NCBI GenBank assembly: GCA_964414795.1
Contig: CAYPWV010000005.1
Span: forward strand, 4,336-68,335
DNA: 64,000 nt
Source of the DNA: an uncultured Gammaproteobacteria bacterium
GTDB lineage: Bacteria > Patescibacteriota > Patescibacteriia > UBA9934
Reading direction: 5' to 3'
The first letter of the stretch is position 1. Each line of letters opens with the position of its first letter. The position numbers and the translations under genes were made by a program. The notes under the pieces were generated by a model, which did not search any database, was not told the origin of the DNA, and saw nothing but the letters and a program-made list of their open reading frames with translations. Below are positions 23,307 to 56,690 of the stretch, piece by piece.

Positions 23307-24509
23307 ATGCAAAGCTTTGCCATTCTCGGAACCCATCAAGCCATTTCTGTTGCGGAAGTTTTTGAGCTCAGCCATCAAGAACCCGCTTTTGCGAATGACA
23401 TTTTTGCACTCTACGCAGCGCCCTGGAAAGATGCATCAGAGCTGATGCGCACCTCAGGAAGCGTGCAAAAAATCGGTCGCATCGTAAAAACTGCACCAAA
23501 ACAAGCAACGGAATTTGATCTGCGAACCATCTTGCTCGAAGTTCTTGAAAGTCTTCCCGAGGGGAAAATTCATTTTGGACTGAGCGTCTACGGTGAAGAA
23601 AAAGACGCCGATCGTATCGGAAAGTTTTTGCCAAGTCTCGGCATCAACCTCAAGCGCGACCTTGCACAAAAAGGCCGCTCCGCACGCGTCGTCTCCACAA
23701 AAGGAAACGCACTTCCTGCGGCAAGTATCATGGCAAATAAACTTATCAGCAAAGGTGCAGAAATTATTTTACTTCCTACAGAAAATGAGCTTCTCATCGG
23801 CATAACCGAAGCCGTGCAAAACATCGACATGTGGGTACTCCACGATCGCGGCAGACCCCGCACCAACGCAAAACAAGGCATGCTTCCGCCAAAACTTGCC
23901 CGCATCATGCTCAACCTTGCCGGCGTTTCCGTTCCCGGAAAAACCGTACTCGATCCCTTCTGCGGAAGTGGAACCGTGCTTATGGAAGCCGGCGCGATGT
24001 ACGCACATCACCTTATGGGAAGCGATCTGAACGCCATGGCAACCAGCGATACGGAAGCCAATTTGCTTTGGGCAGAAGAAGCACTGCATTTTCATGCAAA
24101 AACAACCCTCATCACCTCATCCGCAAAAGATGTTGCAGATAAATTCTCTCCTTCAAGCGTCGACCTCCTTATCACCGAGCCCTATCTCGGTCGCCCTCGT
24201 CGCGGCGGCGAAAACAGAGAAGAAATCATCGAGACCATCGACTATCTCACACGCCTCTACGAAGAAAGTTTTGATGCACTAAAAAAAGTACTCAAACCCG
24301 GCGCACGCATCGTCATCGCCTCCCCCGTGCATCTTTTTGAAGATAAAATGTTTGCCGTTCCTACGGAGGCTATTCTAAAAAGTCTAGGCTATATTCCCCT
24401 TCCATTCACTTCAAACTCCCAACTCCAAACTTCAAACTCTCACCTCTTCTACCATCACGAAGGCCAATACGTGGGACGCGAACTCCTCAGATTCACCTTT
24501 AACGCATAA
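23307..24509 (+). CDS. Putative RNA methyltransferase (THUMP-like N-region plus class I MTase; Trm11/Trm14/RlmL-like)
   Basis: VLDPFCGSGTVLMEAG (motif I) and LLITEPYLG (motif IV of amino-methylating MTases). The last ~30 codons are a fragment of the AGTTTGAAG-family repeat. Confidence 0.65.
   Translation: MQSFAILGTHQAISVAEVFELSHQEPAFANDIFALYAAPWKDASELMRTSGSVQKIGRIVKTAPKQATEFDLRTILLEVLESLPEGKIHFGLSVYGEEKDADRIGKFLPSLGINLKRDLAQKGRSARVVSTKGNALPAASIMANKLISKGAEIILLPTENELLIGITEAVQNIDMWVLHDRGRPRTNAKQGMLPPKLARIMLNLAGVSVPGKTVLDPFCGSGTVLMEAGAMYAHHLMGSDLNAMATSDTEANLLWAEEALHFHAKTTLITSSAKDVADKFSPSSVDLLITEPYLGRPRRGGENREEIIETIDYLTRLYEESFDALKKVLKPGARIVIASPVHLFEDKMFAVPTEAILKSLGYIPLPFTSNSQLQTSNSHLFYHHEGQYVGRELLRFTFNA
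24407..24438. repeat. Solo 3'-end fragment of the MITE-like repeat (CACTTCAAACTCCCAACTCCAAACTTCAAACT), in-frame inside the methyltransferase C-terminus
   Basis: Near-identical to the 3' ends of the elements at 47769-47940 and 56434-56690. Here it encodes ...FTSNSQLQTSNS. Confidence 0.45.
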
Positions 24510-24555
24510 TCTTCTCGTCAAACTAAAAAATGGACTTCCTCAGTCCATTTTTTTC

Positions 24556-25632
24556 TTATGCGCCAATGCGGAAGTGACAAACGTCTCCATCTTTCATCAC
24601 ATACTCTTTGCCTTCGATACGCAGCTTTCCCGCATCACGTGCACCTGCTTCGCCTTTGTAGGAAACGTAATCGTCGTAGGCGATGACTTCTGCGCGAATG
24701 AAGTTTTTCGTAAAATCGGTATGGATGACGCCTGCAGCTTCGGGAGCTTTTGCACCGCGGTGCACGGTCCATGCACGCGTTTCTTGCTCGCCGGTCGTAA
24801 GGAAGGTGATGAGCTCAAGCAGCTCGTAACACTTTTTAATCACACGATCGAGACCGGACTCTTGCATGCCAAGCGCTTCAAGCATTTCTTTCGCTTCATC
24901 ATCAGGCAATCCCGCCAAATCAGCTTCAATCTTCACAGAAACCGGAACCGCTAAACGTCCTTCGCCAAGCGGAGAAACCCACACAGGATTCTTTGCATCT
25001 TCTTCACTGGTATTTACCACGTATAAAATAGGTTTATTGGTAAGCAGTTGCACACCCTTCATCGCCTCTCGCTCTTCGTCCGTCAACTCAACACTCCGCG
25101 CAAGCGTTCCCGTAGCAAGCGCTGCATGCCATTTTTCAAGCGCAGACAATTGCGCAGAAAGATCCGCGCTCTTTCCCGACTTCAGCTTCCCTTTCACCGT
25201 ATCCAACATCTTTTCTACGACCACCAAATCAGATAACGCAAGCTCAAGTTCAATCACTTCAACATCACGCATCGGATCAACCGATCCATCAACATGAATA
25301 ATATCTTTGCTTTCAAACGAACGAACCACGTGCGCAATCATGTCGACTTCGCGAATGTTAGCAAGAAACTTGTTTCCAAGTCCCGCACCTTCGTGCGCTC
25401 CTTTTACCAAGCCAGCAATATCTACAAATTCAATTGCGGTAGGAATAAGCTTTTTTGAATGCGACATCCCGGAAAGAACCGCAAGACGTGGATCGGGAAC
25501 TTCAACAACGCCCACATTCGGCTCAATGGTACAAAACGGAAAATTTGCGCAATCAACCTGTTTTTTGGTAATCGCGGTAAAAAGCGTAGATTTTCCTACA
25601 TTGGGAAGCCCAACAATGCCAACGTTTAACAT
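24556..25632 (-). CDS. ychF: Ribosome-binding ATPase YchF (Obg-family GTPase)
   Basis: MLNVGIVGLPNVGKSTLF (G1), NFPFCTIEPNVGVV, and a C-terminal TGS domain. I chose the internal Met as start. Confidence 0.93.
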   Translation of the reverse strand: MLNVGIVGLPNVGKSTLFTAITKKQVDCANFPFCTIEPNVGVVEVPDPRLAVLSGMSHSKKLIPTAIEFVDIAGLVKGAHEGAGLGNKFLANIREVDMIAHVVRSFESKDIIHVDGSVDPMRDVEVIELELALSDLVVVEKMLDTVKGKLKSGKSADLSAQLSALEKWHAALATGTLARSVELTDEEREAMKGVQLLTNKPILYVVNTSEEDAKNPVWVSPLGEGRLAVPVSVKIEADLAGLPDDEAKEMLEALGMQESGLDRVIKKCYELLELITFLTTGEQETRAWTVHRGAKAPEAAGVIHTDFTKNFIRAEVIAYDDYVSYKGEAGARDAGKLRIEGKEYVMKDGDVCHFRIGA

Positions 25633-25689
25633 AGATGGAAGGGAGTGTACCGGATGGAAGAGAAGGTGACAATAAAATAACACAAAAGT

Positions 25690-28002
25690 CTAGAGCGATG
25701 AGGGAATTTCAGAAATAGTTTCAGGAGTTTCTTCCGGCAATGGATCAGGCAACGCCGCATCATCTTGCACTTCCCCACTTTGCAAGCGATTGAGACGCTG
25801 CTGTACAGCCTCATTATCGGGATTAGCTTTTGCGACTTCGGCGACTTCGGCGATTGCCCCTTCAATATCACCCGCCTGTTCAAGCAACACCGAAAGATAC
25901 CAATGTGCATTAGCGTAATTGGGCGAGAGACGAATGATGCGTTCAAGTTCAGCTTGCGCAAGATCATTTTTTTCTTGTCGTAAATAAAGGAGTGAAAGTT
26001 GCATACCTACACCTACGTCACTTTGCTGCAACGCACGCACCGTTTCCATCGCTTGCACCGCATCAACAAGACTTCCTTCGCGTTCATAGACTGCAGAAAG
26101 AAAATAATACGCAGCAGGATAATCTCCTTTTAACGCAATAGCTTTCGTAAACGCATTCTCCGCATACATAAAAGCCGCATCTCTTTTTGTCGTTGCATCA
26201 GCCTTTAGTGCTGCATCTTCCGTACTTGTATTTTGCGCAAAAAGATCTCCCTGCGCAGTGTACGCTCGTCCAAGCCCAACGAAATAGAGCGGATTATTCG
26301 GCGCGAGTTCCGTTGCGGTAAGAAATGAGGTGACGGAAAAATCAGCCGCATGATCAATTGCCGGCGCTACCTCGCGATACACATTCCCACGCACTTCCCA
26401 GTTTTGCACCACACGTGGACCAATTTCGGTTGCACGCACTGCGGCATGTACTGCGGAACCAAGCACAAGTTGAATTTGCTCCGTGGGAGCATGCGCCTCA
26501 ACAAGCGCATTGATACGCTGCAACAGTAATAAGCTCAACTCCCGATAATACACATCATTCCATCGATTAAACGATGCCGCTTGATCTACTTTTGCAATAA
26601 CATCCTCGGGCGCCGCACCTTTTCTTTCTTGCGCAATCGCCTGCGCATAGGTAATTTCTGCCGCATAACGCGTTCCCGTAACAAAAAACGCAAGAAGAGA
26701 AACAATACCTAAAGCAACAACACTCAACACCGCAACAAGCGAAGAACGAGACGAGGAAACGAACGACCACACCACAGTTCGAGACGATCCTATCGACAAA
26801 AGAAGACCAAACAACACAAACATGATAAACACGAGCGGTGTATTCCATGCATACGTCCATGCAGAGACGGAAAGAAAAACGAATGCAAGGTAGATACCGA
26901 GCATATTTCCTCGCTGCGATGCATGCATGCAAGCGTATGATCGAAAACCTGCGACAATTCCCGAGATCTGGAGCAAAACAAACGTAAACGCCGTAAGCAA
27001 TCCTCCCGTTGTCGCAAGTGTGAGGATATGCGAAAATCCGCGATCAAATACCACATTCCAAAATGCGGTTGCGTTGACGGTGGGAAGTGCGTACAGTGCG
27101 TATGAGATGCCGTACGTACCAGGACCTGAACCTACAAAAAATCCAAAACCGTTATGCCAAACGCTCGTAACAATATCTGTACTTAACGAAAAAGAAGGAA
27201 CGATCTCAACAGGAAAGAACCCTTGAAAAATAGGCGGCAAAATCCATCCCACAAAAGACAAAATCACAAGAAGAACGCCGGGGAGAACATGACTCATCGA
27301 GATCTGTTTTTTCTGAGGGACAAGCGTACACAACAGCAAGGCAACACCCGCTACACACGACGGCAGCCACAAAACCCACGCATCCAATAAAAATGAGACG
27401 ATGAGGAAAGAGGCAAGAAGAACATATCCCGCAATCTTTTCAGCTCGTCCAGCCGAACCCATTGCTATTCCTCCCAAAGAGCAGAGCGTCGCAATGCCAA
27501 AAAACAATGCCAGTGCGTGCGGAGCTCCAAATGAAAGCACGGGAGAAAAAGAGAAAATGCCCGTAAAAATAAGCAGTAAAGCTCCCGTCATAAGTAGTCC
27601 TTCAACGGCCCAAACAACACGAACATACTTCAGTAAAAAAGCAGATTGCGCCGACGCCTGTGCAAGTAAAAAACTCATAAGTACACACGATCCTACAAAC
27701 AACACACTTGCATAATCACCTCCTCCAATCCCCAACCAACTCGCCGCAGGATACACAGAAAAACATGCAGAAACCACCGTTACCAAAAAAAAGATACCAA
27801 GAAAAACCAACGGCCACGACCAAAGCAAGCGAAGCTCTTTTGTTCGCGCAACATGAACAAGAAACAGTGTTCCTGCGATAAGAGACGCAACAATCGCCAC
27901 AGTCACCTTATGCACTTCATACGCATCAACAAACCAAGGAAGAACGAGGATGGGAACGATGGCGATCGAAAAAAGGAGAGGAAAAAGAAAGGACTTTCCC
28001 AT
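25690..28002 (-). CDS. Polytopic membrane protein: O-antigen-ligase/Wzy_C-like N-terminal domain (about 12 TM) plus C-terminal TPR repeats (770 aa)
   Basis: Many hydrophobic helices and a large periplasmic loop typical of the Wzy_C/O-antigen ligase/PglL family. The C-terminal ~300 aa are TPR-like (AYYFLSAVYEREGSLVDAVQA, ANAHWYLSVLLEQAGDIEGAIAE). Confidence 0.7.
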   Translation of the reverse strand: MGKSFLFPLLFSIAIVPILVLPWFVDAYEVHKVTVAIVASLIAGTLFLVHVARTKELRLLWSWPLVFLGIFFLVTVVSACFSVYPAASWLGIGGGDYASVLFVGSCVLMSFLLAQASAQSAFLLKYVRVVWAVEGLLMTGALLLIFTGIFSFSPVLSFGAPHALALFFGIATLCSLGGIAMGSAGRAEKIAGYVLLASFLIVSFLLDAWVLWLPSCVAGVALLLCTLVPQKKQISMSHVLPGVLLVILSFVGWILPPIFQGFFPVEIVPSFSLSTDIVTSVWHNGFGFFVGSGPGTYGISYALYALPTVNATAFWNVVFDRGFSHILTLATTGGLLTAFTFVLLQISGIVAGFRSYACMHASQRGNMLGIYLAFVFLSVSAWTYAWNTPLVFIMFVLFGLLLSIGSSRTVVWSFVSSSRSSLVAVLSVVALGIVSLLAFFVTGTRYAAEITYAQAIAQERKGAAPEDVIAKVDQAASFNRWNDVYYRELSLLLLQRINALVEAHAPTEQIQLVLGSAVHAAVRATEIGPRVVQNWEVRGNVYREVAPAIDHAADFSVTSFLTATELAPNNPLYFVGLGRAYTAQGDLFAQNTSTEDAALKADATTKRDAAFMYAENAFTKAIALKGDYPAAYYFLSAVYEREGSLVDAVQAMETVRALQQSDVGVGMQLSLLYLRQEKNDLAQAELERIIRLSPNYANAHWYLSVLLEQAGDIEGAIAEVAEVAKANPDNEAVQQRLNRLQSGEVQDDAALPDPLPEETPETISEIPSSL

Positions 28003-28009
28003 AGGAAAA

Positions 28010-31000
28010 TTAGATCGGATTTGTATCTACGTTCTCGTCCTGTACAACGTCATTATTAGACGCGTCATCGGTCACGGGGGCGGATATGGAATCCGCACCT
28101 ACGGACGCGTTATCATTTTCATCAATCTCCGCCATGTCCTCGTCAGGAGACGCTATGAATGGCGTCTCTACATCCTCATCTGCATTCGCATCTTCGGACG
28201 CATCGTCGGTCACAGGGGCGGGTATGGAATATGCCCCTACAGATGCATCCTCGTTCACGTCATTTTCTACATCCTCGTTCATATCTAGCACTGGCGTAGC
28301 ATCATCAATCGTGGAAGATTCTACCGGAACCATGTCATGACGATACGCAAGCACAAGCCAATCAACAGAGACACCTTCGCTGCCATTCGCATCACGAATG
28401 ATAAACCCTGCGTTTGAACGATCGGTAACATACAGCTGACCCGTAAGACCATTTGGCGTAACAAGAACGCGATAGGAACTTTCGGGAGAAATGATGTCGT
28501 TATACTCTGGGCTTACATTTTCAAAAGAAACACGAGCCATGCCGTTATGCAATGTTGATGTACCAGAAAGTTGCACCATCGTTTCAGGAGATGTGGTTGG
28601 ATAGGTTGAAACGGACGTGTTTTGCAGCGAATGCACAACCTGTGTGAGCTGACCATCCGTAACAATGTCTCCATTCTCTTTAATTTGCCACGTGCCAATA
28701 CCCGAAAGCGTTCCAACATTTATAATATTGCCTCCATTCATGCTGAGGAGATTGGTAATGTTCAACGTTTCAATATCTTGTGAGTTAATGGCAATCGATG
28801 ACGTATTCGATGCTCCCGAAGTTCCTTGGTATTGCGGACGAACAAACGCTGCAATACTTCCCTCCCCAAAACTCCACGACGCAAGTGCGTAGCCAATAAT
28901 CTGTCCGGGTTCCGTCGCTTTCATAGCAAATCCTGCACGGGAAGACGTGGTGAGTGCATCGCCAGACTCGATCGCACCGTTTTCATCGCTTACCTTCAAA
29001 GAAACCCGACCCGAAACGGCAACGGGATATTCACCCAGAGCACTTCCCGCAATAAATCCCGACTGCGATGCAACAACACCGGCAATACGTGCACTATACG
29101 TTTCACCCGACGAACGCACCACTCCCGAGCCGTCGGCCGCAAACTCCACCACATCTCCCGGAACCAACGCATCAGCAGAGGCAAATGACTCGGAGTAGTT
29201 TGAAGCATTTGATGACCAGCCCGCAGCGTTCGTACGCATATACCCCGCACCCGTACTGTCATAATACACATATGCACCGTACTGGAGCACACCACGATCC
29301 GAAGGATAAAAATTGCCCGCGATCGCTAAATCACCCGTGCTGCCAAACGTCATCACGTCAACATTATCGTTATTCGTAAGACTTAAATGAGAAGCATCAG
29401 TTCCTTCAACAACATTGCGCAGGCTTAAAGAAACATCCTGCGCAAAAGATCCATTCCACGCAGATCCCACAAACGCTAAACCAGCCGAATCAAGAAGTTG
29501 ATGCGTTGCCGTTGCATCCGCACCTCCAAGCGCAATGCCATTCGTAAATGCGGTTGCTTCACCCGTGCTCGTCAGCATCTCTCCCCCGTACCACATTGGC
29601 TGCACCAAAACCTTAATAGTTCCCGCTCCACTAGCGAGCGGTTCAAGCGCACGACCAATAATGTAGGTTCCCCCCGGTGCCTTCGCGCCATATCCCGCAC
29701 GAACGGAGGAAGTAGTAATAGCATCGCCTATAGCAATAGATCCTGCATCTGTAGAAACAAACGTTTCAATCTGCCCCACAAGTCCCACAAGCGCATAATT
29801 TGGATCATTTTCTAAACTTGCCTCAGCGCCGGAATACCCATTTCCAATAAAACCCGGATTTGTAGAAACAACTCCCAACACATTCGTATCTCCCGCAGTA
29901 CAAGACTCTACTGCATACGATTGTTCTTCATCCCAACAAACAATGGTATATCCCGCAATGTGCTCAGATGCGGGAAAATATTCCGCGTAGTCAGCACCTG
30001 CGGCGTTCCATGCGCCGTCGGCAAAAGCATCACCGTCATTTTCAAAACGAAACTCGGTATCACGCACACCACCGCTATTATCTGCATCCGATCGAATAAG
30101 AATAACCTCATCATTGTTCGCATTTTCATTCACATCGATGACAAGTGCTTGTGCGGTAGCTGTGGTTGTCGCATTTGCTACTTGATTTTGCGTAATGTAT
30201 ACCGCCGTAGAATCACCGCCTCCCGAGTTTGAAACATTAAGTGCTTTTCCTGTTGAACCTCCCGATGTACGACCTTGCTGAATATCCACTAAAGTTCCCG
30301 TAAAATCTGTAGCGATCGAATCCGTACGCATGATTTGGAATCCCTTTCCCGAAGTTAACGAATTTGTATTCAGTGAAAATGCCGTGGTTGTTGTTGCAGC
30401 CGAAGTAAAAGTAAATGCATCAGTTCCCGTAGTATCGCCCGCACTAAGACTTCCATTAAACGTTGCAGCTCCCGCAGTCGTTACCGACCATGCAGTTCCC
30501 GAATTAATTGCAACTCCCGTACTTGCATGCGTATTACCGAGCGTAATCGTATCTGCCGACGTACTGTTTGTTGCAATATTAATGGTATTTCCTCTATCAG
30601 AATCAACACCTCCAATATCAATGGTAGTTGTTCCCGAAGTATCATCAAAAAGATTTACGGAAGATGTTGTTGAAGAAAATACTCCCGTCGTTGACGAAAG
30701 TGAACCCGCGGCAACCGTATCTCCCTCCGCATCAACACGAAAACGAGCCGAACCGCCATTTGCAATACCAAAAATAGTATCATTTGCCGCAAGATCGGCT
30801 GTTGCCGGATTAATATACACAGATCCTGCGTCTATTCCAGAACTTGCGGGGTTACCGGTAAAAACCACATTACCTGATGAATTAAGAGCCACAATACCTG
30901 CGGCAGTTGATCCGTTATCTTCTGTAGCAAAGCCATTCAAAAGAAGGGCGTTAATTGCAAAAGGCGCAGAAACAATTTGCTTACGTGGACTCAGTGTTTC

Positions 31001-31408
31001 GCCGCCAATAGTTATTTGAAGATACACACTTGCGTTCTCTCCAAAAACGCTATCACTAATAGCGGCATACGCAGGACTTGCAGCCGTATCACCCAAATTT
31101 TCGCTAAAAAGCCCGTCGGTAAGCGTAACCGTACGAGCCGTTGCTGACGCACAGGTCGCCGAAGAGTTCGACCAAAGACACGTACCGCCCGAAGAAGCGG
31201 TGTAAAATTGAAAGATCATGCTCGCTGATGTATCAGAAACCGGCGCACGATTACTATTCAATAACCGACCCTGGTAAGAGATGATACTTACCGGAAGCGC
31301 TGCGGAAACAGGAGTTGCAAAAAGAAAAAGACTTACACTGTAAATAAACAAAAACAAGGCGGATGATATCCTCCAAAGGCTTTTTTTCTGTATACCGGCT
31401 CTATTCAT
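28010..31408 (-). CDS. Very large secreted Gly/Thr/Ser-rich repetitive surface protein (~1130 aa) with an acidic C-terminal tail
   Basis: Signal peptide (FLFIYSVSLFLFATPVSA). A long beta-rich, low-charge repetitive body resembling an adhesin or fibre. The acidic tail contains palindromic element copy C. Start trimmed to the internal Met; the track ORF runs to 31450. Confidence 0.75.
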   Translation of the reverse strand: MNRAGIQKKSLWRISSALFLFIYSVSLFLFATPVSAALPVSIISYQGRLLNSNRAPVSDTSASMIFQFYTASSGGTCLWSNSSATCASATARTVTLTDGLFSENLGDTAASPAYAAISDSVFGENASVYLQITIGGETLSPRKQIVSAPFAINALLLNGFATEDNGSTAAGIVALNSSGNVVFTGNPASSGIDAGSVYINPATADLAANDTIFGIANGGSARFRVDAEGDTVAAGSLSSTTGVFSSTTSSVNLFDDTSGTTTIDIGGVDSDRGNTINIATNSTSADTITLGNTHASTGVAINSGTAWSVTTAGAATFNGSLSAGDTTGTDAFTFTSAATTTTAFSLNTNSLTSGKGFQIMRTDSIATDFTGTLVDIQQGRTSGGSTGKALNVSNSGGGDSTAVYITQNQVANATTTATAQALVIDVNENANNDEVILIRSDADNSGGVRDTEFRFENDGDAFADGAWNAAGADYAEYFPASEHIAGYTIVCWDEEQSYAVESCTAGDTNVLGVVSTNPGFIGNGYSGAEASLENDPNYALVGLVGQIETFVSTDAGSIAIGDAITTSSVRAGYGAKAPGGTYIIGRALEPLASGAGTIKVLVQPMWYGGEMLTSTGEATAFTNGIALGGADATATHQLLDSAGLAFVGSAWNGSFAQDVSLSLRNVVEGTDASHLSLTNNDNVDVMTFGSTGDLAIAGNFYPSDRGVLQYGAYVYYDSTGAGYMRTNAAGWSSNASNYSESFASADALVPGDVVEFAADGSGVVRSSGETYSARIAGVVASQSGFIAGSALGEYPVAVSGRVSLKVSDENGAIESGDALTTSSRAGFAMKATEPGQIIGYALASWSFGEGSIAAFVRPQYQGTSGASNTSSIAINSQDIETLNITNLLSMNGGNIINVGTLSGIGTWQIKENGDIVTDGQLTQVVHSLQNTSVSTYPTTSPETMVQLSGTSTLHNGMARVSFENVSPEYNDIISPESSYRVLVTPNGLTGQLYVTDRSNAGFIIRDANGSEGVSVDWLVLAYRHDMVPVESSTIDDATPVLDMNEDVENDVNEDASVGAYSIPAPVTDDASEDANADEDVETPFIASPDEDMAEIDENDNASVGADSISAPVTDDASNNDVVQDENVDTNPI
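28145..28169. repeat. Palindromic element copy C (GAGACGCtAT-ga-ATGGCGTCTC, one mismatch), in-frame encoding DEDVETPFIASPDED; flanked by ~45-nt imperfect direct repeats at 28055-28105 and 28195-28245
   Basis: Read directly. Confidence 0.75.
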
Positions 31409-35040: not shown

Positions 35041-35065
35041 ACAGACGCCATAAATGGCGTCTCTA
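35041..35065. repeat. Palindromic element copy D (cAGACGCCAT-aa-ATGGCGTCTC), intergenic between two surface-protein genes
   Basis: Same core as the other copies, outside any confident CDS. Confidence 0.75.
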
Positions 35066-44921: not shown

Positions 44922-45162
44922 CTTTAGTCGAGGTCAGGATCGTGTTCATCGCGAGACGCAGATACATCTCGAGAGTAGCCAACGAATCCGTCGACATCTG
45001 CAGTGCAGTTTTCCCATGCTGAAAAGCCATCACTCACCGTCCTTTACTATGTAGAAGTTGAATCCGGATACCGTCACCACAAAAGAAATTTCCTGTTTCG
45101 TCTAAAATTTCCTTTGCGCTAACGACATCCTTATCCTCGTGCATTTTTTTATCTTCGTACGG

Positions 45163-45192
45163 GCGGAACATCTTCCGCCCCTGTTTTTGAAC
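45163..45192 (+). terminator. Rho-independent terminator GGGCGGAA-catc-TTCCGCCC plus CTGTTTTTG
   Basis: GC hairpin followed by a T-run on the plus strand. It ends a ~480-nt plus-strand non-coding or sORF region. Confidence 0.5.
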
Positions 45193-45208
45193 TTCCCAAC
45201 TTTCCCCC

Positions 45209-45332: not shown

Positions 45333-45812
45333 ATGAAAGGAGATGCAGTGCCGTTTATTGAAAAAATCACCTCGTGGGTGGGATCTTTTGGATCGCTCAT
45401 CATCCATACGCTTCTTTTTGCCATTATTTTATGCGTTGGCGCGCTTGGCATCCTTTCGTGGGACATCGTCCTGCTCGTCCTCACCACGGGCGTATCCCTT
45501 GAGGCAATTTACTTGGCAATTTTCATTCAAATGAGCGTCAATCAGCAGTCACAAGTCATGAAAGAAGTGGAGCAAAATGTCGACGAGATCAAAGAAGATG
45601 TTGATGAAATCCAGGAAGATGTGGGAGAGATTCAAGAAGATGTCGACGAAATTCAAAAAGATATTGATGCAATCGAAGAAGACGTTGATGAAATTCAGGA
45701 AGACGAAGCCGAGGATGACAAACGCGACAGAGAACACCAAGAAACCCTTGCCGCAATGTCCGTCAACCTGCAAAAACTGTTACAAGATATTGAAAAAATG
45801 AAAAAGAGCTAG
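45333..45812 (+). CDS. DUF1003 family membrane protein with a C-terminal tandem-repeat acidic coiled coil
   Basis: Two TM helices and the conserved LSLEAIYLAIFIQMSVNQQ block that I recognise from DUF1003 proteins. Five tandem 24-nt repeats encode (E/K)DVDEIQ. Confidence 0.75.
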   Translation: MKGDAVPFIEKITSWVGSFGSLIIHTLLFAIILCVGALGILSWDIVLLVLTTGVSLEAIYLAIFIQMSVNQQSQVMKEVEQNVDEIKEDVDEIQEDVGEIQEDVDEIQKDIDAIEEDVDEIQEDEAEDDKRDREHQETLAAMSVNLQKLLQDIEKMKKS

Positions 45813-47277: not shown

Positions 47278-47282
47278 CCTCC

Positions 47283-47723: not shown

Positions 47724-47768
47724 CCAGATGAAAACCCTGCTCGATTTTCTCGGGCAGGGATTTTCTTA

Positions 47769-47940
47769 GGAAGTTTGAAGCTGGATGGGGAAGACCCTGA
47801 CGATAGGAAGGGTCCAGCGAACCTACTTGTCAGGAGGTTTCCTTAATCGTGCGATAGGTCCTTCGCAGGAGCTCAGGATCCTGCTCAACGAAATACAACA
47901 TCCACTCACTTCAAACTAACAACTCCCAACTTCAAACTTT
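47769..47940 (+). repeat. MITE-like repeat copy 1 (~172 bp) with terminal inverted repeats GAAGTTTGAAGCTGG ... CCAACTTCAAACTT, a subterminal duplicated CTTCAAACT and internal hairpins; sits between rpsO and the NYN gene
   Basis: Shares AGTTTGAAG, CCTGACGATAGGAAGG, TCCTTCGC.GAGCTCAGGA and CACTTCAAACTAACAACT...CTTCAAACT blocks with the copy at 56434-56690. Confidence 0.55.
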
Positions 47941-47990
47941 CTCACTAAGGTACACTAGTTCACAGATACTTTTTTATATTTTCTCCACAT

Positions 47991-48752: not shown

Positions 48753-48755
48753 CGT

Positions 48756-50990
48756 ATGCCATCAAAATCTTATACAATCACCTGGGGCGGAAAGCTTCTT
48801 ACCATCGAGGTAGGAAAATTTGCACGTGCCGCAAACGGCAGCTGTACGGTTCGTTACGGTGACACTATGGTTCTTGCAACAGCAGTGATGTCCAAAGACG
48901 TCCGCCCAGGAATGAATTTCTTTCCGCTGATGGTGGAGTACGAGGAAAAGCTCTATGCCGCAGGTCGTATTAAGGGTTCGCGTTTTATTAAACGTGAAGG
49001 TCGCCCAACCGACGAAGCCGTGCTTACCGCACGTTTTATTGATCGTGCCATTCGTCCGCTGTTTGATGCCCGCATGGAAAATGATGTGCAAGTGATGGTG
49101 ACCGCACTCGCGTTTGATAAAAAAAATGATACCGATATTCCTGGACTTATCGCTGCATCATGCGCGCTCCATATTTCAGAAATTCCTTGGAACGGCCCTC
49201 TTGCCGCAGCACGCGTGAACAAATCTGCCGATGGATCTTTTATCCTTAACGGTACATACGAGGAACGTCTTGCGGCACGTTTCGATGTAGATGTTGCCGG
49301 AACTCCCGAGAAAATAATAATGATCGAAGCAGGGTGTGACGAAGCAACCGAGCAAGAAGTAACAGACGCGCTTTTTTTCGGACAAAAAAATCTCGCACCC
49401 GTCATTGAACTCATCGAAAAAATTCGCGCAGATCTCGGAAAACCCAAGGCAGACATTTTTGGCATGAAAACCGATGAAGATCGTGCGCGTTTTGCAAAAA
49501 AAGCAGATGTTGAAAAAATTGCAAAGCCGTTCATTGTGGGAGAAGTTGAAAAATATTTCTTCGGTTCGCCACATGCAACAAAAGCAGAACGTTACATCGC
49601 AAAAGATCTCATCAAGAAAAATACGATCGCATTTCTCACCGAACAAGGTCTCGACGAAGAAAGCGTAAAAATGGGTGCATCTATGGTCACCGCAACGCTC
49701 GAAGGAGAAATCACTAAACACATCATTGAAAATAAGCGTCGTGTGGATGGTCGTGGTATTGATGATATTCGCACACTTCTTGCAGAAGTTGCAGTGCTTC
49801 CCTGTGTGCATGGATCCGGCCTTTTTGAACGCGGCGAAACGCAGGTACTTTCGGTATGTACGCTCGGTGCTCCAGGTGATAAGCAAACACTCGACGGTAT
49901 GGAGCTTGTAGGAGAAAAAAGGTTCATGCATCACTACAACTTTCCTCCTTTCTCTGTAGGCGAAGCAAAGCCCGTACGCTCAACTGGTCGCAGAGAAATT
50001 GGTCACGGCGCACTTGCAGAAAAAGCCTTGCAGTACATGATTCCCGATCAAGAACTTTTTCCGTACGCTATTCGCGTGGTTTCAGAAACACTCGGTTCAA
50101 ATGGATCAAGCTCAATGGCATCAACCTGCGGCGCAACCCTCGCACTTATGGATGCGGGAGTTCCTATTAAAGCACCCGTTGCGGGAATTGCGATGGGCCT
50201 CGCGAGTGACGGTAAACGTTATCAAGTCATCACCGATCTACAAGACTTGGAAGATGGCGAAGGCGGGATGGATTTCAAAATCACCGGAACGGCAAACGGA
50301 ATCACCGCAATCCAGCTCGATACAAAAACCGATGGCATTCCACAAGACGTGATTCGCGAAACTATCACGCGTGCAAAAGTTGCACGCCTCAAGGTACTCG
50401 ACGTGATGCAAGGCGCGCTTCCCGCTCCTCGCGCCGAACTTTCGCCTTCTGCGCCACGCATTCTCAAGCTGCGCATCAATCCCGATAAAATTCGTGAAGT
50501 AATCGGCTCGGGAGGAAAAACCATTAATGAAATCATCGCAAAAACCGGCGTTACCGCAATTGACATTGAACAGGATGGCTTGATTATGATTACCGCACTT
50601 GATGGCGTTGCCGGACAAGCCGCATACGATTGGGTTTATAATCTTACGCGTGAGGTAACGCCCGGAGAAACGTTTATCGGCAAGGTGGTGCGCCTAATGG
50701 ATTTTGGTGCATTCGTTGAAGTACTCCCTGGAAAAGATGGGCTGGTACACGTCTCCGAGCTAGCTCCTTGGCGCGTAGAAAAAGTAACCGATATTGTGAA
50801 CCAAGATATGATGGTGCATGTAAAGGTATTGGAGATTGATGAAAAAGGCCGCCTCAACCTTTCCATGAAACAAGCAGAAGGCAATGTGTACACCGAGGAA
50901 ATGAAAGCAAAAGCACAAAAGTCTTCCGCGCCTTCTTCAGCACCAAAAAAACCCAGCGTCATCAAAGCTCCGTCCGTCCACAAATCTTAA
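48756..50990 (+). CDS. pnp: Polyribonucleotide nucleotidyltransferase (PNPase)
   Basis: Two RNase PH domains, then KH and S1 domains (GKVVRLMDFGAFVEVLPGKDGLVHVSEL). Confidence 0.97.
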   Translation: MPSKSYTITWGGKLLTIEVGKFARAANGSCTVRYGDTMVLATAVMSKDVRPGMNFFPLMVEYEEKLYAAGRIKGSRFIKREGRPTDEAVLTARFIDRAIRPLFDARMENDVQVMVTALAFDKKNDTDIPGLIAASCALHISEIPWNGPLAAARVNKSADGSFILNGTYEERLAARFDVDVAGTPEKIIMIEAGCDEATEQEVTDALFFGQKNLAPVIELIEKIRADLGKPKADIFGMKTDEDRARFAKKADVEKIAKPFIVGEVEKYFFGSPHATKAERYIAKDLIKKNTIAFLTEQGLDEESVKMGASMVTATLEGEITKHIIENKRRVDGRGIDDIRTLLAEVAVLPCVHGSGLFERGETQVLSVCTLGAPGDKQTLDGMELVGEKRFMHHYNFPPFSVGEAKPVRSTGRREIGHGALAEKALQYMIPDQELFPYAIRVVSETLGSNGSSSMASTCGATLALMDAGVPIKAPVAGIAMGLASDGKRYQVITDLQDLEDGEGGMDFKITGTANGITAIQLDTKTDGIPQDVIRETITRAKVARLKVLDVMQGALPAPRAELSPSAPRILKLRINPDKIREVIGSGGKTINEIIAKTGVTAIDIEQDGLIMITALDGVAGQAAYDWVYNLTREVTPGETFIGKVVRLMDFGAFVEVLPGKDGLVHVSELAPWRVEKVTDIVNQDMMVHVKVLEIDEKGRLNLSMKQAEGNVYTEEMKAKAQKSSAPSSAPKKPSVIKAPSVHKS

Positions 50991-50999
50991 TACTGTGCT

Positions 51000-52151
51000 G
51001 TGATGCTCAATGCAAATATTCCTCTCAATACCCAAACACCAACCCGCCAATATCCCTGGTGGGTCGGTGTGTTTTTAGGGATTTTTTTGGTGAGTTTCTT
51101 TCTTGGATTTTCGTGCGCAAAGCGCGTGCTTGAAGGCATCCGTGTTCCGCGGCTCACTACCTCATCAGGCGTCGCACTTCGCATCACCCCAGAACACGCG
51201 CTCTGGATCAAACAGCACACTGAAGGCCTTTCACTCAACGGTGAATGTCCTCTCGATCTCCCCACGCTCATCGCTTTCAAGCGTCCTTCATGGATACTCA
51301 TTGGAGACTCCGGCGAAGAACAGCTTTCTTTTATCGGTGCATTTCCCAAGGAATTAGAAAACTATCAAACCGCCTTTGGCTGCACTTTTACACAAAACGC
51401 ATCCGGATTCACCCTCACACCTGTAGGGGCGGGTTTAAAACCCGCCATTACGACACCCCACACCCCACCCCCTACACCCATTTCCTTCACGTTCCCCCTC
51501 GCCATTCCCGACGGATGGGCATGGATTAATGACGATCGCATTCCGCTAACTCTGCAAGAACACGGGCTCAGCATCGCACTGCACAGCACTACGCCAAACA
51601 AAAAAATACCGTGGCCACAAGAAAACCTGACAAACGCCCTGCCACTTGTTCCACTTTCAGAAAACGTTCTCTCTGCACAATGGCAAGGCCTTTCTCATGT
51701 GCTTTCTTCACAAAACGGTGTCGCGTTCTTTTCTTGGACGCATGAAAACGTTGATGCATTTGGCATCGTTCTTCACGAACAAATAACCGATGAAGACTTT
51801 CTCAATCTCATCTCCGACATCGGCAACATTCCTCAAACATCCCAAAAAACCTATCGCGATGACGGTGACGCTTACCTTGCAATCGTCAAAGAAGCAATCT
51901 CCGTCACTTCGCTAGGTACAAAAGAAAAAGAAGCACGTCTTACGGATGGCACCGCAGTAGGATTCCTACTCATACAAAATGGATACTCTCTCATCAGCAC
52001 CGTACCAACAACATGGAAAGATACTACACCGCCTTGGGAAGCAAATCTGCGCTCTACACAACAGCAACAGGCACACAGTCCATCAACACTTGCAGATTTT
52101 GGCAAACACATGTTCACCACAAAAAAGACGGTAACCATTTTTGATAAATAA
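51000..52151 (+). CDS. Hypothetical membrane-anchored protein (383 aa)
   Basis: Single N-terminal TM (WWVGVFLGIFLVSFFLGF). No family recognised. Long ORF in operon position after pnp. Confidence 0.5.
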   Translation: MMLNANIPLNTQTPTRQYPWWVGVFLGIFLVSFFLGFSCAKRVLEGIRVPRLTTSSGVALRITPEHALWIKQHTEGLSLNGECPLDLPTLIAFKRPSWILIGDSGEEQLSFIGAFPKELENYQTAFGCTFTQNASGFTLTPVGAGLKPAITTPHTPPPTPISFTFPLAIPDGWAWINDDRIPLTLQEHGLSIALHSTTPNKKIPWPQENLTNALPLVPLSENVLSAQWQGLSHVLSSQNGVAFFSWTHENVDAFGIVLHEQITDEDFLNLISDIGNIPQTSQKTYRDDGDAYLAIVKEAISVTSLGTKEKEARLTDGTAVGFLLIQNGYSLISTVPTTWKDTTPPWEANLRSTQQQQAHSPSTLADFGKHMFTTKKTVTIFDK

Positions 52152-52542
52152 TCTGTGATACACTTTCTTTCGTAAACGTTCTTTCTATAATTCCGTTTGG
52201 TGTGGTATAGCGTGCGTTGGACGAGTATTCGTCAAACGCGCTATGCACGCACAGCTCAGTAATGCGGACATGCGGCATGATACGAGTGGCACCAGAGAAA
52301 TGCTCAATCCCTTCATCTCAGCTCTGCGATACCGCTTCGATGGCCTGCAAAGGAAAAAGACGTGTTGAGAAAAATGTGCGAATATTTCGTCCTTTTTTCC
52401 CAACATCTCTCCTCCCTTGTCGCACATCAAAAAAGAAAGATCATTCCAAAAAAGATACGCGCCGCATAGGCAATCTTTTGCAAAGGACATGCTCTTTTCT
52501 TTTTTTCTCATATTGCGTACTCTACTAAGAAATATCTTTCCT

Positions 52543-52920
52543 ATGACCAAAAAAGCTCTTTCTGCTGCATTCCTTGAAGAAATGCACACGCTCCTTGTTG
52601 CCGAACTCGCACGCCTAGAAAAAGAATTAGGGAACTTTTCCCATCGCAATCCCGCGCAAGCAGAGGAAGAGATGAGCGATGCAGGAGCAGATGAAGGAGA
52701 AAGTGCAGAGCGTATCGCACAATTAGGTGACGATCTTTCGCTCGAAGAAGAATTAAATCGCGCGGTAAAAGATGTTGAAGGTGCACTCAAAGCCCTTGAA
52801 AAGGGCGAATACGGCATGTGTAAATACTGTAAACAACCTATCGATGAAGCGCGCCTGCGCATTCGCCCAACCTCAACATCCTGTGTTGCCTGCAAACGAA
52901 CCCTTACCCAAGAGATGTAA
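52543..52920 (+). CDS. DksA/TraR-family C4 zinc-finger protein
   Basis: Coiled-coil N-region and C-terminal CKYCKQPIDEARLRIRPTSTSCVACK. I chose the internal Met as start; the track ORF begins at 52417. Confidence 0.75.
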   Translation: MTKKALSAAFLEEMHTLLVAELARLEKELGNFSHRNPAQAEEEMSDAGADEGESAERIAQLGDDLSLEEELNRAVKDVEGALKALEKGEYGMCKYCKQPIDEARLRIRPTSTSCVACKRTLTQEM

Positions 52921-52940
52921 TCTCTCTCGCAAAAAAATAC

Positions 52941-52970
52941 GCATCCTCTCAGGATGCGTGCTTTTTTTTA
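52941..52970 (+). terminator. Rho-independent terminator GCATCCT-ctc-AGGATGC plus T9
   Basis: Seen in sequence 20 nt after the dksA-like stop. Confidence 0.6.
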
Positions 52971-52984
52971 CGATACTTGATGGA

Positions 52985-53362
52985 ATGGTGAAATTTCTTG
53001 CGCTCAACGATAGTCTTCCCGAAATTCATACAAAATTCTTGAGTATCACTTATTTCGCAAACCCCGGCATCGCCTTCAGTATTCCTCTCCCACAAACGCT
53101 CACACTTATTATCACCGGAATACTCATCATCATATTCGGCGTATTTTTTATCAAAACAATAGATAATACTCTCAAAATTGCACTTGCAAGTGCGCTTCTT
53201 GGTGCAGGAAGCAATTTTATTGATCGGCTCATAACCGGCTACACCACCGATTATATTATTTTCTTCTCACGTTCAGCGATGAATATCGCAGATTTCCTAA
53301 TCATTGCAGGAATCGGATACTGCGTATGGTATTATCAAAAGACAGACGTGACAAAAAGATAA
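52985..53362 (+). CDS. lspA: Lipoprotein signal peptidase (signal peptidase II)
   Basis: NPGIAFSIPLP, NFIDRL and DYIIFF...NIADFLIIAGIGY blocks. The start is uncertain: ATG at 52985 or the in-frame GTG at ~52958. Confidence 0.7.
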   Translation: MVKFLALNDSLPEIHTKFLSITYFANPGIAFSIPLPQTLTLIITGILIIIFGVFFIKTIDNTLKIALASALLGAGSNFIDRLITGYTTDYIIFFSRSAMNIADFLIIAGIGYCVWYYQKTDVTKR

Positions 53363-53366
53363 TACA

Positions 53367-54917
53367 TTGCCCAAACTCCACTCCCTATACATTATGGGAT
53401 TTTTTTCTTTACAAGGCGGTTCGGTACAAGGGATGATTGCAAATAAAGTAGATATTGAAGTGGATATTTCATTTGGACTTCCGAAATTTTCCATCGTCGG
53501 ACTTCCAGATACTGCAGTACAAGAATCAAAAGAACGCATTCGTTCTGCGTTGCAAAATAGCGGCTACCCGTTCCCAAGAACCGTCATCACCGTCAACCTC
53601 GCGCCCGCACACGAACGCAAGCAAGGATCGCATCACGACGCTACCATCGCACTTGCGCTTCTTGCCGCAGAGGAGCTCGTCGTTACCACGCACTTCGCAC
53701 ACATCTTTATCGCGGCAGAACTTGGGCTTTCGGGAGAACTTCGTCCCGTACGGGGCATTATTCCTCTTGCACTTCATGCAAAACAACAAGGAATAATACA
53801 CATCATGGTCGCATCATCTGATGCAGAGATCCTCAGACACATTCCAGGAATCTTTGTCCACGGCTGCAAAAATCTTCGCGAGCTCATCGACGTACTTTCG
53901 CAAAAAGCACTACCGGAAAAAGATGCTAAGGATGTAGGGGCGGATTTCATATCCGCCCACAAAGTTCCCATCGCCCACCCCTTCGCACACATCCGCGGAC
54001 ATCATCTCGCAAAACGCGCACTCATCATCGCAATAGCGGGCAATCATCCACTTATGCTTATCGGACCTCCCGGAAGCGGAAAAACACTTCTTGCAAAAAG
54101 CGCACAACAACTTCTCTCACCACTCTCGTTTGATGAAGCACTCGAACTAGCGTGCATCAAGTCCGTACAAAGAGAATATACCCACGATCTCTTTTCCTAC
54201 GAACGCCCCTTTCGCTCGCCGCATCACCACACTAGTGCCGCCGCACTGGTTGGCGGCGGCTCAATGATCGTTCCCGGAGAAATATCGCTCGCACATCACG
54301 GCATCTTGTTCCTCGACGAACTCCCCGAGTTCCCGCAAAAATCCCTCGAAGCATTGCGACAGCCTCTCGAATCGGGAGAAGTGCACATCGCTCGTGCATC
54401 CGGACACGTCACCTTCCCCTCAAGTACACAACTTATCTGTGCAATGAACCCGTGTCCATGTGGATTTTTTGGCGATGCGCAGCGCGCCTGCATCTGCGCA
54501 CCCCAAAAAGTAAAACGCTATCAAGAACGCGTTTCTGGCCCGCTTCTTGATCGTATGGATATTTTTGTCGATCTCCCACGCATTCCCTCGGAAGAACTTC
54601 TCCAAGAACAGAACTCGGCACCCCAACAAGACGTTCCTTCCTCGGAAGAACTCACTATCATACGAACAACACAAAAACAGCGACTCACCTCCTGCGCAGG
54701 AAGCCTCACGAAATATGAAGAACTTGCACAACCAACCATTGAAGCAAAACAACTCTTTAGCAAAGCGGTTGATCGCTTTCAACTTTCCGGACGAGGTTAT
54801 ACGCGCCTCCTTCGCGTAAGCAGAACCATTGCAGACTTGGCGCACGCAGAGCGCGTTGAACCCGAACACGTCAGCGAAGCGCTCAGCTATCGCTCACGAC
54901 TGCTCGTACGCAATTAG
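53367..54917 (+). CDS. comM: Mg-chelatase-like AAA+ ATPase YifB/ComM
   Basis: Lon-like N-domain, then AAA+ (LMLIGPPGSGKTLLA, ILFLDELPEF) and the C-terminal ChlI/ComM region. Confidence 0.9.
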   Translation: MPKLHSLYIMGFFSLQGGSVQGMIANKVDIEVDISFGLPKFSIVGLPDTAVQESKERIRSALQNSGYPFPRTVITVNLAPAHERKQGSHHDATIALALLAAEELVVTTHFAHIFIAAELGLSGELRPVRGIIPLALHAKQQGIIHIMVASSDAEILRHIPGIFVHGCKNLRELIDVLSQKALPEKDAKDVGADFISAHKVPIAHPFAHIRGHHLAKRALIIAIAGNHPLMLIGPPGSGKTLLAKSAQQLLSPLSFDEALELACIKSVQREYTHDLFSYERPFRSPHHHTSAAALVGGGSMIVPGEISLAHHGILFLDELPEFPQKSLEALRQPLESGEVHIARASGHVTFPSSTQLICAMNPCPCGFFGDAQRACICAPQKVKRYQERVSGPLLDRMDIFVDLPRIPSEELLQEQNSAPQQDVPSSEELTIIRTTQKQRLTSCAGSLTKYEELAQPTIEAKQLFSKAVDRFQLSGRGYTRLLRVSRTIADLAHAERVEPEHVSEALSYRSRLLVRN

Positions 54918-56383
54918 TAACGAATATAGTTCGCGGGATTAAGAAACTTTTTCGTTGCCTTATCAATAACCTCAAAGTGCAAGTGCGTTCCTGAAGAATT
55001 TCCCGTAGAGCCACATCGACCAAGTGGATCGCCTACCCCCACCGTCTGACCAGATTGAACGTAAAGGGTATAGAAGTGTCCGTACCGCGTTATAAGACCA
55101 TTTCCGTGATCAATCTCTACGGTGTTTCCATAGCCTCGCCTCGCCCCAGCAAAAACAACCATGCCCTCAGCTGCAGCATAGTTGTCGTTCGTTGATGTTC
55201 CGTTGGCATGTCCGGAACAATCAATATCATATCCCGTATGGAACCAACTTAACCCACGAACAATAGTAGGAAGATCGGTGGGCCATACCATAGAAAAACC
55301 TTCTCCCGGAACCTTATCTCCCTGGCTTCCCACAGGTGCAGAAGTAAAAATGTCCTTCACTGCAACACCCGTGGTAAGTGTAGGACGAGAAACAGGAGTC
55401 GCAGCAATTACTCCTCCCGGAACGATAACCTGTTGACCAATCTGCAATGATACATCGTCCGGGAATTGATTGAACGATATGATCGTCGCCGAATCAACAT
55501 TGTATTTTTTTGCGATCGCCGAAAGCGTGTCGCCACTTTTTATCGTATGCGTAAGTCCAGAAACAGGAAGAATGGCGAGCTCTTGTCCGGGCTTTAATAC
55601 CGAACGAACCGTAAGATTATTTGCCCAAAGAAGGGTATTAAGATTGATACCAAACTTTTCCGAAATGCCCGAAAGCGTGTCACCGCTTTCTACCGCATAC
55701 GTAATAGTTTGCGTACGCGGAGCAACGGTGCCCGAACCAGAAGGAGATCCAGACGACGAAGCAGTTAATGCAAATACGCCATCAGCACGAAGTACTCCGG
55801 GAGAATTTTCAAGCGCCAATACGTCCGTGATTGTTTGGGTTAACGATCCGTCTAAAATACCAGGATCATCATTCTCCGCAGAAACAATATACGCACGTGC
55901 ATCTTTTGGATCGCTGTATTCGTTGATAAAATCCGTTCGCTCATTTGTCGCAAGCGCATACAAAATACTCTGCTGCCCAATAGCATCACCCTCCGCACGC
56001 ACCGCATTTACATGGATATTAGTGATGCCTCCAATGGCCGCAATAAGCATCACAATTGCATAAAACGAAAAACGATTACTTACCACAAACATGAGTCTAT
56101 TTTTTACGGGGCGATATACCGCACCCATATTCCGCTTCGCCAAAAAAAACACGCGGTATCCTGGAACAAAAACTTTTAAACAAATGTTTCCTAATCGCCG
56201 AAAAAGGGGAGCGATGGCCGAAAAAAATTGTAAAAAACGTGCTTTAATAAAAAGCAGCGCACGCACCACACTCAGCCCAAAACGTACCACGAACGACGGA
56301 CGTGAAGGCATATGAGAAACAGTATATGCCTTTTTGCGCATCCTCACAAGAAAAAAGGAGGAAAAACCGCAAACATTAGCCAA
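54914..56383 (-). CDS. LysM-domain M23 family metallopeptidase
   Basis: Two LysM repeats (YAVESGDTLSGISEKFGINLNTLLWANNL; HTIKSGDTLSAIAKKYNV) and the M23 HxxxD...HxH core (HTGYDID...GTHLHFEV). Confidence 0.9.
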   Translation of the reverse strand: MANVCGFSSFFLVRMRKKAYTVSHMPSRPSFVVRFGLSVVRALLFIKARFLQFFSAIAPLFRRLGNICLKVFVPGYRVFFLAKRNMGAVYRPVKNRLMFVVSNRFSFYAIVMLIAAIGGITNIHVNAVRAEGDAIGQQSILYALATNERTDFINEYSDPKDARAYIVSAENDDPGILDGSLTQTITDVLALENSPGVLRADGVFALTASSSGSPSGSGTVAPRTQTITYAVESGDTLSGISEKFGINLNTLLWANNLTVRSVLKPGQELAILPVSGLTHTIKSGDTLSAIAKKYNVDSATIISFNQFPDDVSLQIGQQVIVPGGVIAATPVSRPTLTTGVAVKDIFTSAPVGSQGDKVPGEGFSMVWPTDLPTIVRGLSWFHTGYDIDCSGHANGTSTNDNYAAAEGMVVFAGARRGYGNTVEIDHGNGLITRYGHFYTLYVQSGQTVGVGDPLGRCGSTGNSSGTHLHFEVIDKATKKFLNPANYIRY

Positions 56384-56433
56384 AGACTTTGACTCATTTT
56401 CCTTGGTCTCGTATACTTGTCCGCGTCTTAATT

Positions 56434-56690
56434 AAGAAGTTTGAAGTTGATAGTTATGAGTTTGAAGTGAGTGGAGGTTGTATTTTATTGAGTAGATCCT
56501 GACGATAGGAAGGACCTGTCGCACGAATAAAAGGAGACAATCTGACAAATAGGTTTTCTCGAGATCCTTCGCCGAGCTCAGGACCTTGTGAGCTCAGATC
56601 ATTTCTCTCATCTGTCGTCTGCTGTCTATTATCTCTTAAACTAAAAGGAACTACCTTTCACTTCAAACTAACAACTAAAAGCTTCAAACT
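56434..56690 (+). repeat. MITE-like repeat copy 2 (~257 bp) with duplicated 5' AGTTTGAAGT and 3' CTTCAAACT termini, immediately upstream of tig and ending in a C8 tract
   Basis: Homologous blocks to copy 1, in the same orientation. It occupies the divergent promoter region between the M23 peptidase and tig. Confidence 0.55.

Follow-up and report, generated by a model that had tools for sequence, protein, structure and literature searches.

A 64,000-nt stretch of a Patescibacteriota genome (contig CAYPWV010000005.1, positions 4,336 to 68,335; hereafter the window) contains a dispersed repeat family, the members of which lie next to housekeeping genes such as tig and efp and are probably small, non-coding, palindromic mobile elements of the MITE (miniature inverted-repeat transposable element) type, most like the Correia and ERIC elements and residing in a lineage of Patescibacteria. 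Each member is composed of two inverted copies of one 33-45-nt arm around a hairpin-forming core, measures 120-277 bp and lacks a conserved open reading frame (ORF). The window holds four family loci, about one copy per 16 kb. Gain and loss of copies have occurred within the period over which genomes of about 80% protein identity diverged. Cores are interchanged among copies, and the apical core is found in either orientation.

Arms, cores and loci in the window

In the window, 12 occurrences of the box CTTCAAACT were counted where 1.06 would be expected, and none of 100 shuffles reached 12; nine of the 12 fall in the three loci first reported, and the boxes of a pair are always 21 nt apart. 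A repeat finder returned a direct family of three 52-nt copies at 24399, 47899 and 56651, the inverted arms within copy 2 (60 nt, 72% complementary), and an inverted match that links the 5' arm of copy 2 to the 3' arm of copy 1 over 69 nt (83%). A sequence-only reading of this DNA had described terminal inverted repeats, a duplicated subterminal CTTCAAACT, and internal blocks common to copies 1 and 2 (CCTGACGATAGGAAGG and TCCTTCGC-GAGCTCAGGA). All three descriptions hold, the first by the fit of both ends, inverted, to one 45-nt arm profile and the second by the constant spacing of the box pair. The three loci named there are a real repeat, yet the total was too low, a fourth locus at 19660-19780 having been missed, and the arms reach farther than claimed (copy 1 about 47765-47949, copy 2 about 56427-56703).

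Copy 2 is the full element (56427..56703; this and the following features lie on the plus strand unless stated otherwise), with nhmmer E values of ~3e-10 for both arms. Its C-free 5' arm (56437-56497) leads into the core, and its G-free 3' arm (56631-56690) is followed by a run of eight C residues (56691-56698), ATCTT, and the tig ATG at 56704, a start that is fixed because all tig homologues, which come from Patescibacteria throughout (nearest named, Uhrbacteria, 56% identity), are 429 aa long. The C run had been noted correctly but placed 6 nt from the ATG, the distance being 5 nt. Since copy 2 is located between the conserved tig promoter (TTGACT-17-TATACT, 56389..56417, 10/12 consensus positions) and the ATG, it would lie within the tig 5' untranslated region (UTR) and belong to the tig transcript. 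Copy 1 (47765..47949) follows directly 3' of the rpsO terminator, ahead of the NYN-pnp genes, and has a short 5' arm (47771-47794) and a long, G-free 3' arm (47881-47949); the intrinsic terminator itself (47735..47759), which is conserved in the related loci L127 and L129, is outside the element and given for context only. Copy 4 (19660..19780, minus strand), found by a scan for G-free runs, fills the spacer from the stop of an EpmA-like gene to the efp ATG (19659) and consists of a CTAGG-rich core hairpin and then a G-free heptamer leader that ends in CTTCACCTAT directly before that ATG (written longer, ...CCCAACTTCACCTAT, abutting it).

On the G-free strand, the arm reads (A)ACAnC(T/A)TTCACTTCAAACT-nnn-AACT-nnn-AACTTCAAACT, usually followed by (T)TCTCAC, or in a shorter form ...TCACTTCAAACT-nnn-AACT-nnn-AACTTCAAACT-(T)TCTCAC, which amounts to four or five heptamers of the scheme AACTNNN (ACTNNNA in register). 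An nhmmer profile built from ten arms was run on the collected Patescibacteria sequences, and 13 arms match this one profile with E values from 5e-11 to 9e-3. What is conserved in the arms is sequence and not base pairs, because the variable triplets within one copy mismatch: AAC and AAA in one arm of copy 2 stand against the non-complementary CAT and ATC in the other. Selection for pairing between arms was considered and rejected on these mismatches. The unit AGTTTGA of the C-free arms (e.g., 56438-56467) presumably also forms part of the 5' end of 16S rRNA (27F primer AGAGTTTGATC), in which case that end and the G-free arm would be complementary; the window contains no rRNA gene, and the variable triplets speak against pairing as a function.

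Three types of core were distinguished. One is a stem-loop whose loop reads GACGATAGGA; the others are a hairpin rich in CTAGG and one formed by GACGACAGA/TCTGTCGTC, and both of these recur at unrelated loci and in other genomes. The core of copy 4 is homologous to that of L124-1, the ybeY-dgkA element of another genome (score 24, shuffle maximum 14), and copy 4 shares a 19-nt identity with an arm of L121. Box 1 is a separate small hairpin whose variable stem spans 6-7 bp and whose loop reads G(A/G)CGATAGGA; in copy 2 (56494..56517) the stem is AGATCCT/AGGACCT around the conserved 10-nt loop GACGATAGGA, and in copy 1 (47793..47814) it is GACCCT/AGGGTC around the same loop. Over four instances of this hairpin, pairing holds in 92.9% of cells and both sides of three pairs differ, compared with 21-54% paired in slid controls; as regards covariation, a check that had been proposed, the small hairpin shows compensatory changes in its stem. 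Box 2 of copy 2 (TCCTTCGCCGAGCTCAGGA, 56565..56583) matches box 1 imperfectly in inverted orientation and borders the apical core (56514-56565), the invertible segment. That core, 47-52 nt long, is inverted in copy 1 (47812..47858) relative to copy 2, with a reverse-complement alignment score of 18, a forward score of -13, and a maximum of 0 over 500 shuffles, and both boxes keep their orientation. The reverse complement of copy 1 aligns to copy 2 better than the forward strand (44/49 nt), and the statement that the two copies share one orientation applies to the two boxes, not to the apical core.

Both copies, folded as had been suggested, are more stable than dinucleotide shuffles, with -57.4 kcal/mol (z score -3.45) for copy 1 and -83.9 kcal/mol (z score -4.99) for copy 2; the plus and minus strands are equally stable, and their counts of G-U pairs are without asymmetry. 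Rfam, searched with the whole window at gathering score, gave no match to the element, and with both copies at E up to 10 it returned chance-level matches only. No promoter was predicted inside the element or at its ends. Copy 2 has, in the region from box 2 to the 3' arm (56596-56633), a pyrimidine-rich near mirror repeat, TCTCTCATCTGTCGTC|TGCTGTCTATTATCTCT, for which a triplex is possible in principle; its first half is inverted in L121 and L124-2, and the halves there form a hairpin.

The remaining locus is an arm-like, G-free heptamer segment (24401..24438, nhmmer E 5e-10) inside a Trm11-like (THUMP) methyltransferase gene (23307-24509). The segment lies within a 70-nt G-free run and encodes, in frame, the approximately 11 codons TSNSQLQTSNS, about 24 codons before the stop, and the conserved L-x-YHHEGQ-x-VGRELLRF C-terminus comes after it. 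Hence a 32-nt fragment fused to the C-terminus, as originally envisaged, is not what the gene contains; the segment is inserted internally and in frame, within a variable loop. The protein has 400 aa, and an identical protein is on record; homologues of 389 aa are without the roughly 11 residues between LPF and L-x-YHHEGQ-x-VGRELLRF. The window protein and its two closest homologues (DNA compared with L131 and L133) carry variable heptamer-encoded inserts at the same point. Since the empty site in homologues reads CCCTTCAAAG, a possible seed, local slippage is as plausible for this segment as capture of an arm. An exact-protein look-up of the tig product, PNPase, and protein P0001 of the window found no identical protein on record.

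Filled and empty sites in related genomes

Gene order is kept in four relatives at roughly 73-83% identity, and the loci compared were L127, L129, L130, and L133. Together they reveal an insertion polymorphism, in which the tig, efp, and rpsO-NYN sites are filled in the window and empty in the relatives. The distance from the M23 peptidase gene to the tig ATG is about 320 nt in the window, including the 277-nt copy 2, and 147-166 nt in L127, L129, and L130, where the tig leader after the promoter is only 38-60 nt long and without the element. Likewise, the EpmA-efp spacer measures 121 nt here against 6 nt in L133, and the rpsO-NYN spacer 267 nt here against an element-free 147 nt in L129. The tig promoter is kept as TTGAC(T/G)-17-TATA(C/G)T in L127, L129, L130, and L146 and is followed by a G-poor leader. 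The rpsO-NYN spacer of L127 contains a different, diverged insert with the same small hairpin reversed, and then G-free repeats that abut the ATG. The nhmmer arm profile found no arm in about 80 kb of the relatives' sequence. Because copies are present or absent across relatives in the manner of mobile DNA, local segmental duplication is ruled out and a conserved regulatory RNA is argued against.

A strict arm pattern led to six metagenome contigs, of which five come from well H41 (Hainich groundwater) and one from a different sample, and the tig protein of the H41 organism is 83% identical to that of the window. The H41 contigs carry the family at ybeY/dgkA, ftsZ/nrdR, after murD (murD/xre), and at two further genes, so that at least five loci on H41 contigs, together with two on L126, are located outside the window. 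No genes common to the window and the H41 contigs were found when they were sought for the reverse comparison of filled and empty sites. In the tig leader of the H41 relative (L146 2215-2333) there is a separate insert of about 100 nt, in which a GTCATCC...GGATGAC hairpin encloses CTCGAAGATCCTTCGGTCGAC, similar to box 2 of copy 2, and a heptamer-like leader follows (AACTTCATACATCTC...TATG); at this site the insert may represent an older member or a different one. Viral contigs gave no match to the arm pattern and 11 matches to the 16-mer box, five of which belong to one group of phages, where the structural context differs; by our estimate, chance could account for this with a 16-mer. In these related phages (L135, L139, L141, L143, and L144, from IMG/VR) the exact 16-mer CCTGACGATAGGAAGG lies inside GCCTG-CCTGACGATAGG-AAGGC near an A run, and the different hairpin context led us to judge the identity to be due to chance.

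Element ends, start codons and rival explanations

Of the 18 ends, 15 have a TA dinucleotide no more than 10 nt beyond the last conserved box, compared with a background of 0.38 (p ~1e-4, post hoc). At six ends this TA is that of TATG, and several others have it in a TAG stop completed by the first G of the element. Upstream of the predicted genes of the window, Shine-Dalgarno motifs are almost absent and leaders are G-poor, and 21 of 26 genes have T at position -1 of the ATG (TATG, often CAC(C)TATG), a context that looks Kozak-like. The arms end 3 nt from the ATG of efp, 13 nt from that of tig, and 0-9 nt from those of nrdR, dgkA, and the L121 genes, with no Shine-Dalgarno motif. The strand facing outward contains no ATG, GTG, TTG, TGA, or TAG, because it is G-free. 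The start region (-13..+16) is predicted to be 0.59-0.76 unpaired with the element, similar to the empty sites.

According to the reading of the family as MITE-like mobile elements, copies would survive where they are harmless, that is, in stop-to-start gaps of a few bases, in leaders between promoter and ATG, and in frame in a variable protein loop. Their G-free outward ends may mimic the native G-poor, Shine-Dalgarno-less leaders of the host, and the downstream start codon is predicted to remain accessible. Insertion into TA with duplication of the TA, as for Correia and IS630/mariner-type elements, would rebuild the start or stop codon and, judging from the ends, fits what is seen there; if the TA of TATG is the target, this would explain insertion at a start codon without destruction of the codon. 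In the mRNA leader, co-transcribed copies could contribute a hairpin of 60-85 kcal/mol, which probably changes mRNA processing or stability, as does RNase III cleavage at Correia elements.

The arms are part of a described, as yet unexplained class of heptamers upstream of start codons. A loose genome scan with the pattern CTTCAAACT-N12-CTTCAAACT gave at least 120 loci, with 131 clusters among the matches listed, mostly (ACTTCAA)n-type arrays in Bacteroidota, Planctomycetota, Verrucomicrobiota, Acidobacteriota, cyanobacteria, and others. Among these, the G-free strand faces an ATG-started ORF within 45 nt in 33 of 131 clusters, compared with nine of 131 in a mirror control, and a crude filter placed an inverted, C-free partner array upstream in 22 of the 131 clusters listed, about 15-20 of which are real heptamer hairpins by eye. 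Heptamer hairpins of other phyla are exemplified by L041, L072, L035, L106, and L120, and in L104 the arms flank an apparent tRNA gene.

Several observations weigh against a mobile element. The window contains no transposase, and no autonomous partner with matching ends is known. The loci seen are limited to four in the window and about seven outside. No target-site duplication beyond the TA dinucleotide can be demonstrated, the closest empty sites being too diverged to fix the exact junctions, and at tig the element replaces the native leader instead of merely interrupting it. The methyltransferase segment could have grown by slippage from the native CCCTTCAAAG. Furthermore, heptamer arrays occur free of any element in many phyla, so that conservation of the arms could reflect a cellular function and not binding by a transposase. 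A non-autonomous transposable element, one proposal of the sequence-only reading, has in its favor the dispersed, non-coding copies with inverted ends and the empty orthologous sites; at the ends no duplication beyond TA could be shown, and no partner transposase was seen in the window. Its alternative of an element spread into 5' UTRs fits as well, copy 2 being downstream of the conserved tig promoter.

An alternative that we regard as unlikely, though worth serious attention, is that the family is a selected cis-acting leader cassette, in which the arm (AACUNNN, four to five times) is an mRNA site for Shine-Dalgarno-less initiation, bound by S1, by a cold-shock protein, or by some other protein that binds single strands, and tuned in its availability by the hairpin, and which is kept for regulating housekeeping genes (tig, efp, pnp, nrdR, dgkA, and ftsY). 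The distance of 0-13 nt between G-free arm and start codon in most copies, the facing of ORFs by (ACTTCAA)n arrays in the scan above, the host without Shine-Dalgarno motifs, and the TAACTGA (= ACTGATA) and TTCAAAA repeats before starts, which have been suggested to take part in translation (PMC4679880; bioRxiv 10.1101/2022.06.06.494920), all speak for such a cassette. Nevertheless, in close relatives the element is absent and the same genes are expressed, the G-free arm of L028 faces the 3' end of a convergent gene with no start codon, and no binding factor is known; in a compact genome, moreover, any tolerated insertion must abut a start or a stop, so adjacency alone proves little. The two ideas could also be combined, although we consider this quite improbable, into a mobile leader cassette whose arm is the same signal as the heptamers of Bacteroidota, Planctomycetes-Verrucomicrobia-Chlamydiae (PVC) bacteria, cyanobacteria, Beggiatoaceae, and Acidobacteriota, replaces the Shine-Dalgarno sequence as a site recognized by the ribosome or by a conserved single-strand-binding protein, and is installed before genes by insertion into the TA of TATG. 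If that were true, transposition would rewire translational control in a genome with very few regulators.

Local growth by replication slippage, with template-switch inversion and recombination or gene conversion among similar arrays, would account without transposition for arms that pair in shifted registers, for mosaic cores, and for a methyltransferase segment sitting at the homologues' possible seed, heptamers being the commonest long simple repeats in bacteria (PMC4679880). We give this explanation little credence, since arms at unrelated loci and in different genomes are 88-97% identical over 33-49 nt, including non-repetitive inner parts such as ...AACACCTTTCAC and GTGAGTGGA(T/G)GTTGTATTT, complex cores are common to unrelated loci, and slippage cannot put the same 120-260-bp sequence into a 6-nt spacer. 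A stand-alone structured small RNA gene in several copies, another proposal of the initial reading, is very improbable: stable folds that beat shuffles and the compensatory changes in the small hairpin would suit it, but the element matches nothing in Rfam, has no dedicated promoter or terminator (copy 2 being placed between the tig promoter and ATG), folds equally well on both strands, differs between the window and L127 in the orientation of the hairpin module to the downstream gene, and is absent at orthologous sites. There is next to no chance that local segmental duplication or low-complexity similarity produced the family; only 8.5 kb separates copies 1 and 2, and the G-free arms have low complexity, yet the flanks share nothing, two more loci lie 23-28 kb off, the same arms and cores occur in other genomes, and the motif count is far above shuffles. 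Both the stand-alone small RNA and the segmental duplication, the latter named at the outset as a result that would overturn the repeat family, are effectively excluded.

Other repeats in the window and comparison with known systems

A second, unrelated repeat family in the window is REP-like and combines GTAG with a GC-rich hairpin (GTAGGGGCGGA..TCCGCCCC and GTAGAGACGCC..GGCGTCTC). Its hairpins are located at 7802-7819, 45162-45179, 51428-51446, 53939-53957, and 61601-61618, and with GTAG on the minus strand at 7754-7771, 9392-9409, ~28148-28170, and 35044-35061. Several of them are in frame inside long ORFs, for example three in an FtsK-like ORF (7690-10062), and in the H41 contigs L028 and L124-1 such hairpins are nested inside members of the heptamer-arm family. 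A DUF3800-V RNA motif (Rfam RF02964, 16366-16480, plus strand; 55.4 bits against a gathering score of 37.4) adjoins a DUF3800-domain gene (ORF 16518-17171, minus strand), which is the name-giving association, here in a Patescibacterium. Six tandem 21-nt (7-codon) repeats at 45553-45720, within ORF 45333-45812, encode an acidic coiled-coil segment of the EDVDEIQ type.

The genomes of Patescibacteria are very small and compact, and we found no description of small repeats from them in the literature. Copies in the leaders of core genes (tig, efp, and NYN-pnp) point to ongoing tolerated insertion, into spacers down to 6 nt, and the same gene with and without the element provides natural paired alleles for questions of translation or mRNA decay. 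The family also joins two topics that are usually kept apart, MITE-like palindromes and the heptamer repeats before start codons in phyla that rarely use Shine-Dalgarno.

Among known small repeats, the RAYT-mobilised REP/BIME elements resemble the family in their mosaic hairpins of alternating orientation in intergenic DNA. They differ in that the arms here are AT-rich heptamers and not GC-rich 20-40-nt palindromes, and no GTAG foot is present at the ends; neither a RAYT gene nor a Y1 transposase was seen in the window. Like the present copies, ERIC/IRU, RUP, and BOX elements occupy transcribed intergenic regions as imperfect palindromes about 100-130 bp long; they influence the stability of mRNA, and BOX is modular like the cores here. 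They have no sequence similarity to the family and are without heptamer periodicity. RPE of Rickettsia, which inserts in frame in genes (PMC10969869), and QMITE of Coxiella offer a parallel for the methyltransferase, as a repeat-derived segment in frame in a housekeeping protein that does not destroy it. In the present case only one arm of about 33 nt is found in the coding sequence, not the whole element, and an origin by slippage is possible.

The closest parallels are with the Correia elements of Neisseria (CREE/NEMIS), which are likewise non-coding, 100-260 bp long, bounded by long terminal inverted repeats with TA at both ends, and located mostly just upstream of genes, with which they are co-transcribed into hairpins (a position that for copy 2 of the present family is deduced from the tig promoter). 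Correia elements carry promoters and are cut by RNase III at their inverted repeats, and their documented inversion and the variation of their insertion sites between strains (PMC10969869) are further points of likeness. Unlike them, the elements described here have arms that are heptamer arrays, two boxes 21 nt apart, cores that are interchangeable modules, no predicted outward promoter, and a Patescibacterium as host. With regard to the arms, the nearest relatives are the TAACTGA repeats before start codons in Beggiatoaceae, cyanobacteria, and Bacteroidetes (PMC4679880) and the TTCAAAA repeats in the same position in Nostoc (bioRxiv 10.1101/2022.06.06.494920), for both of which the proposed role in translation is unproven. 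These share the AACTNNN scheme, given that TAACTGA when repeated reads ACTGATA, and they comprise two to six forward units a few nucleotides from the start codon of genes without Shine-Dalgarno. Theirs are simple direct arrays of identical units, whereas here the middle triplets differ, the arrays come as inverted pairs, and the arms enclose a core of 50-150 nt and behave with it as one transposable unit. Heptamer arms that serve as the inverted ends of a moving unit, and their occurrence in Patescibacteria, are thus what the present family adds to the heptamer repeats described so far.

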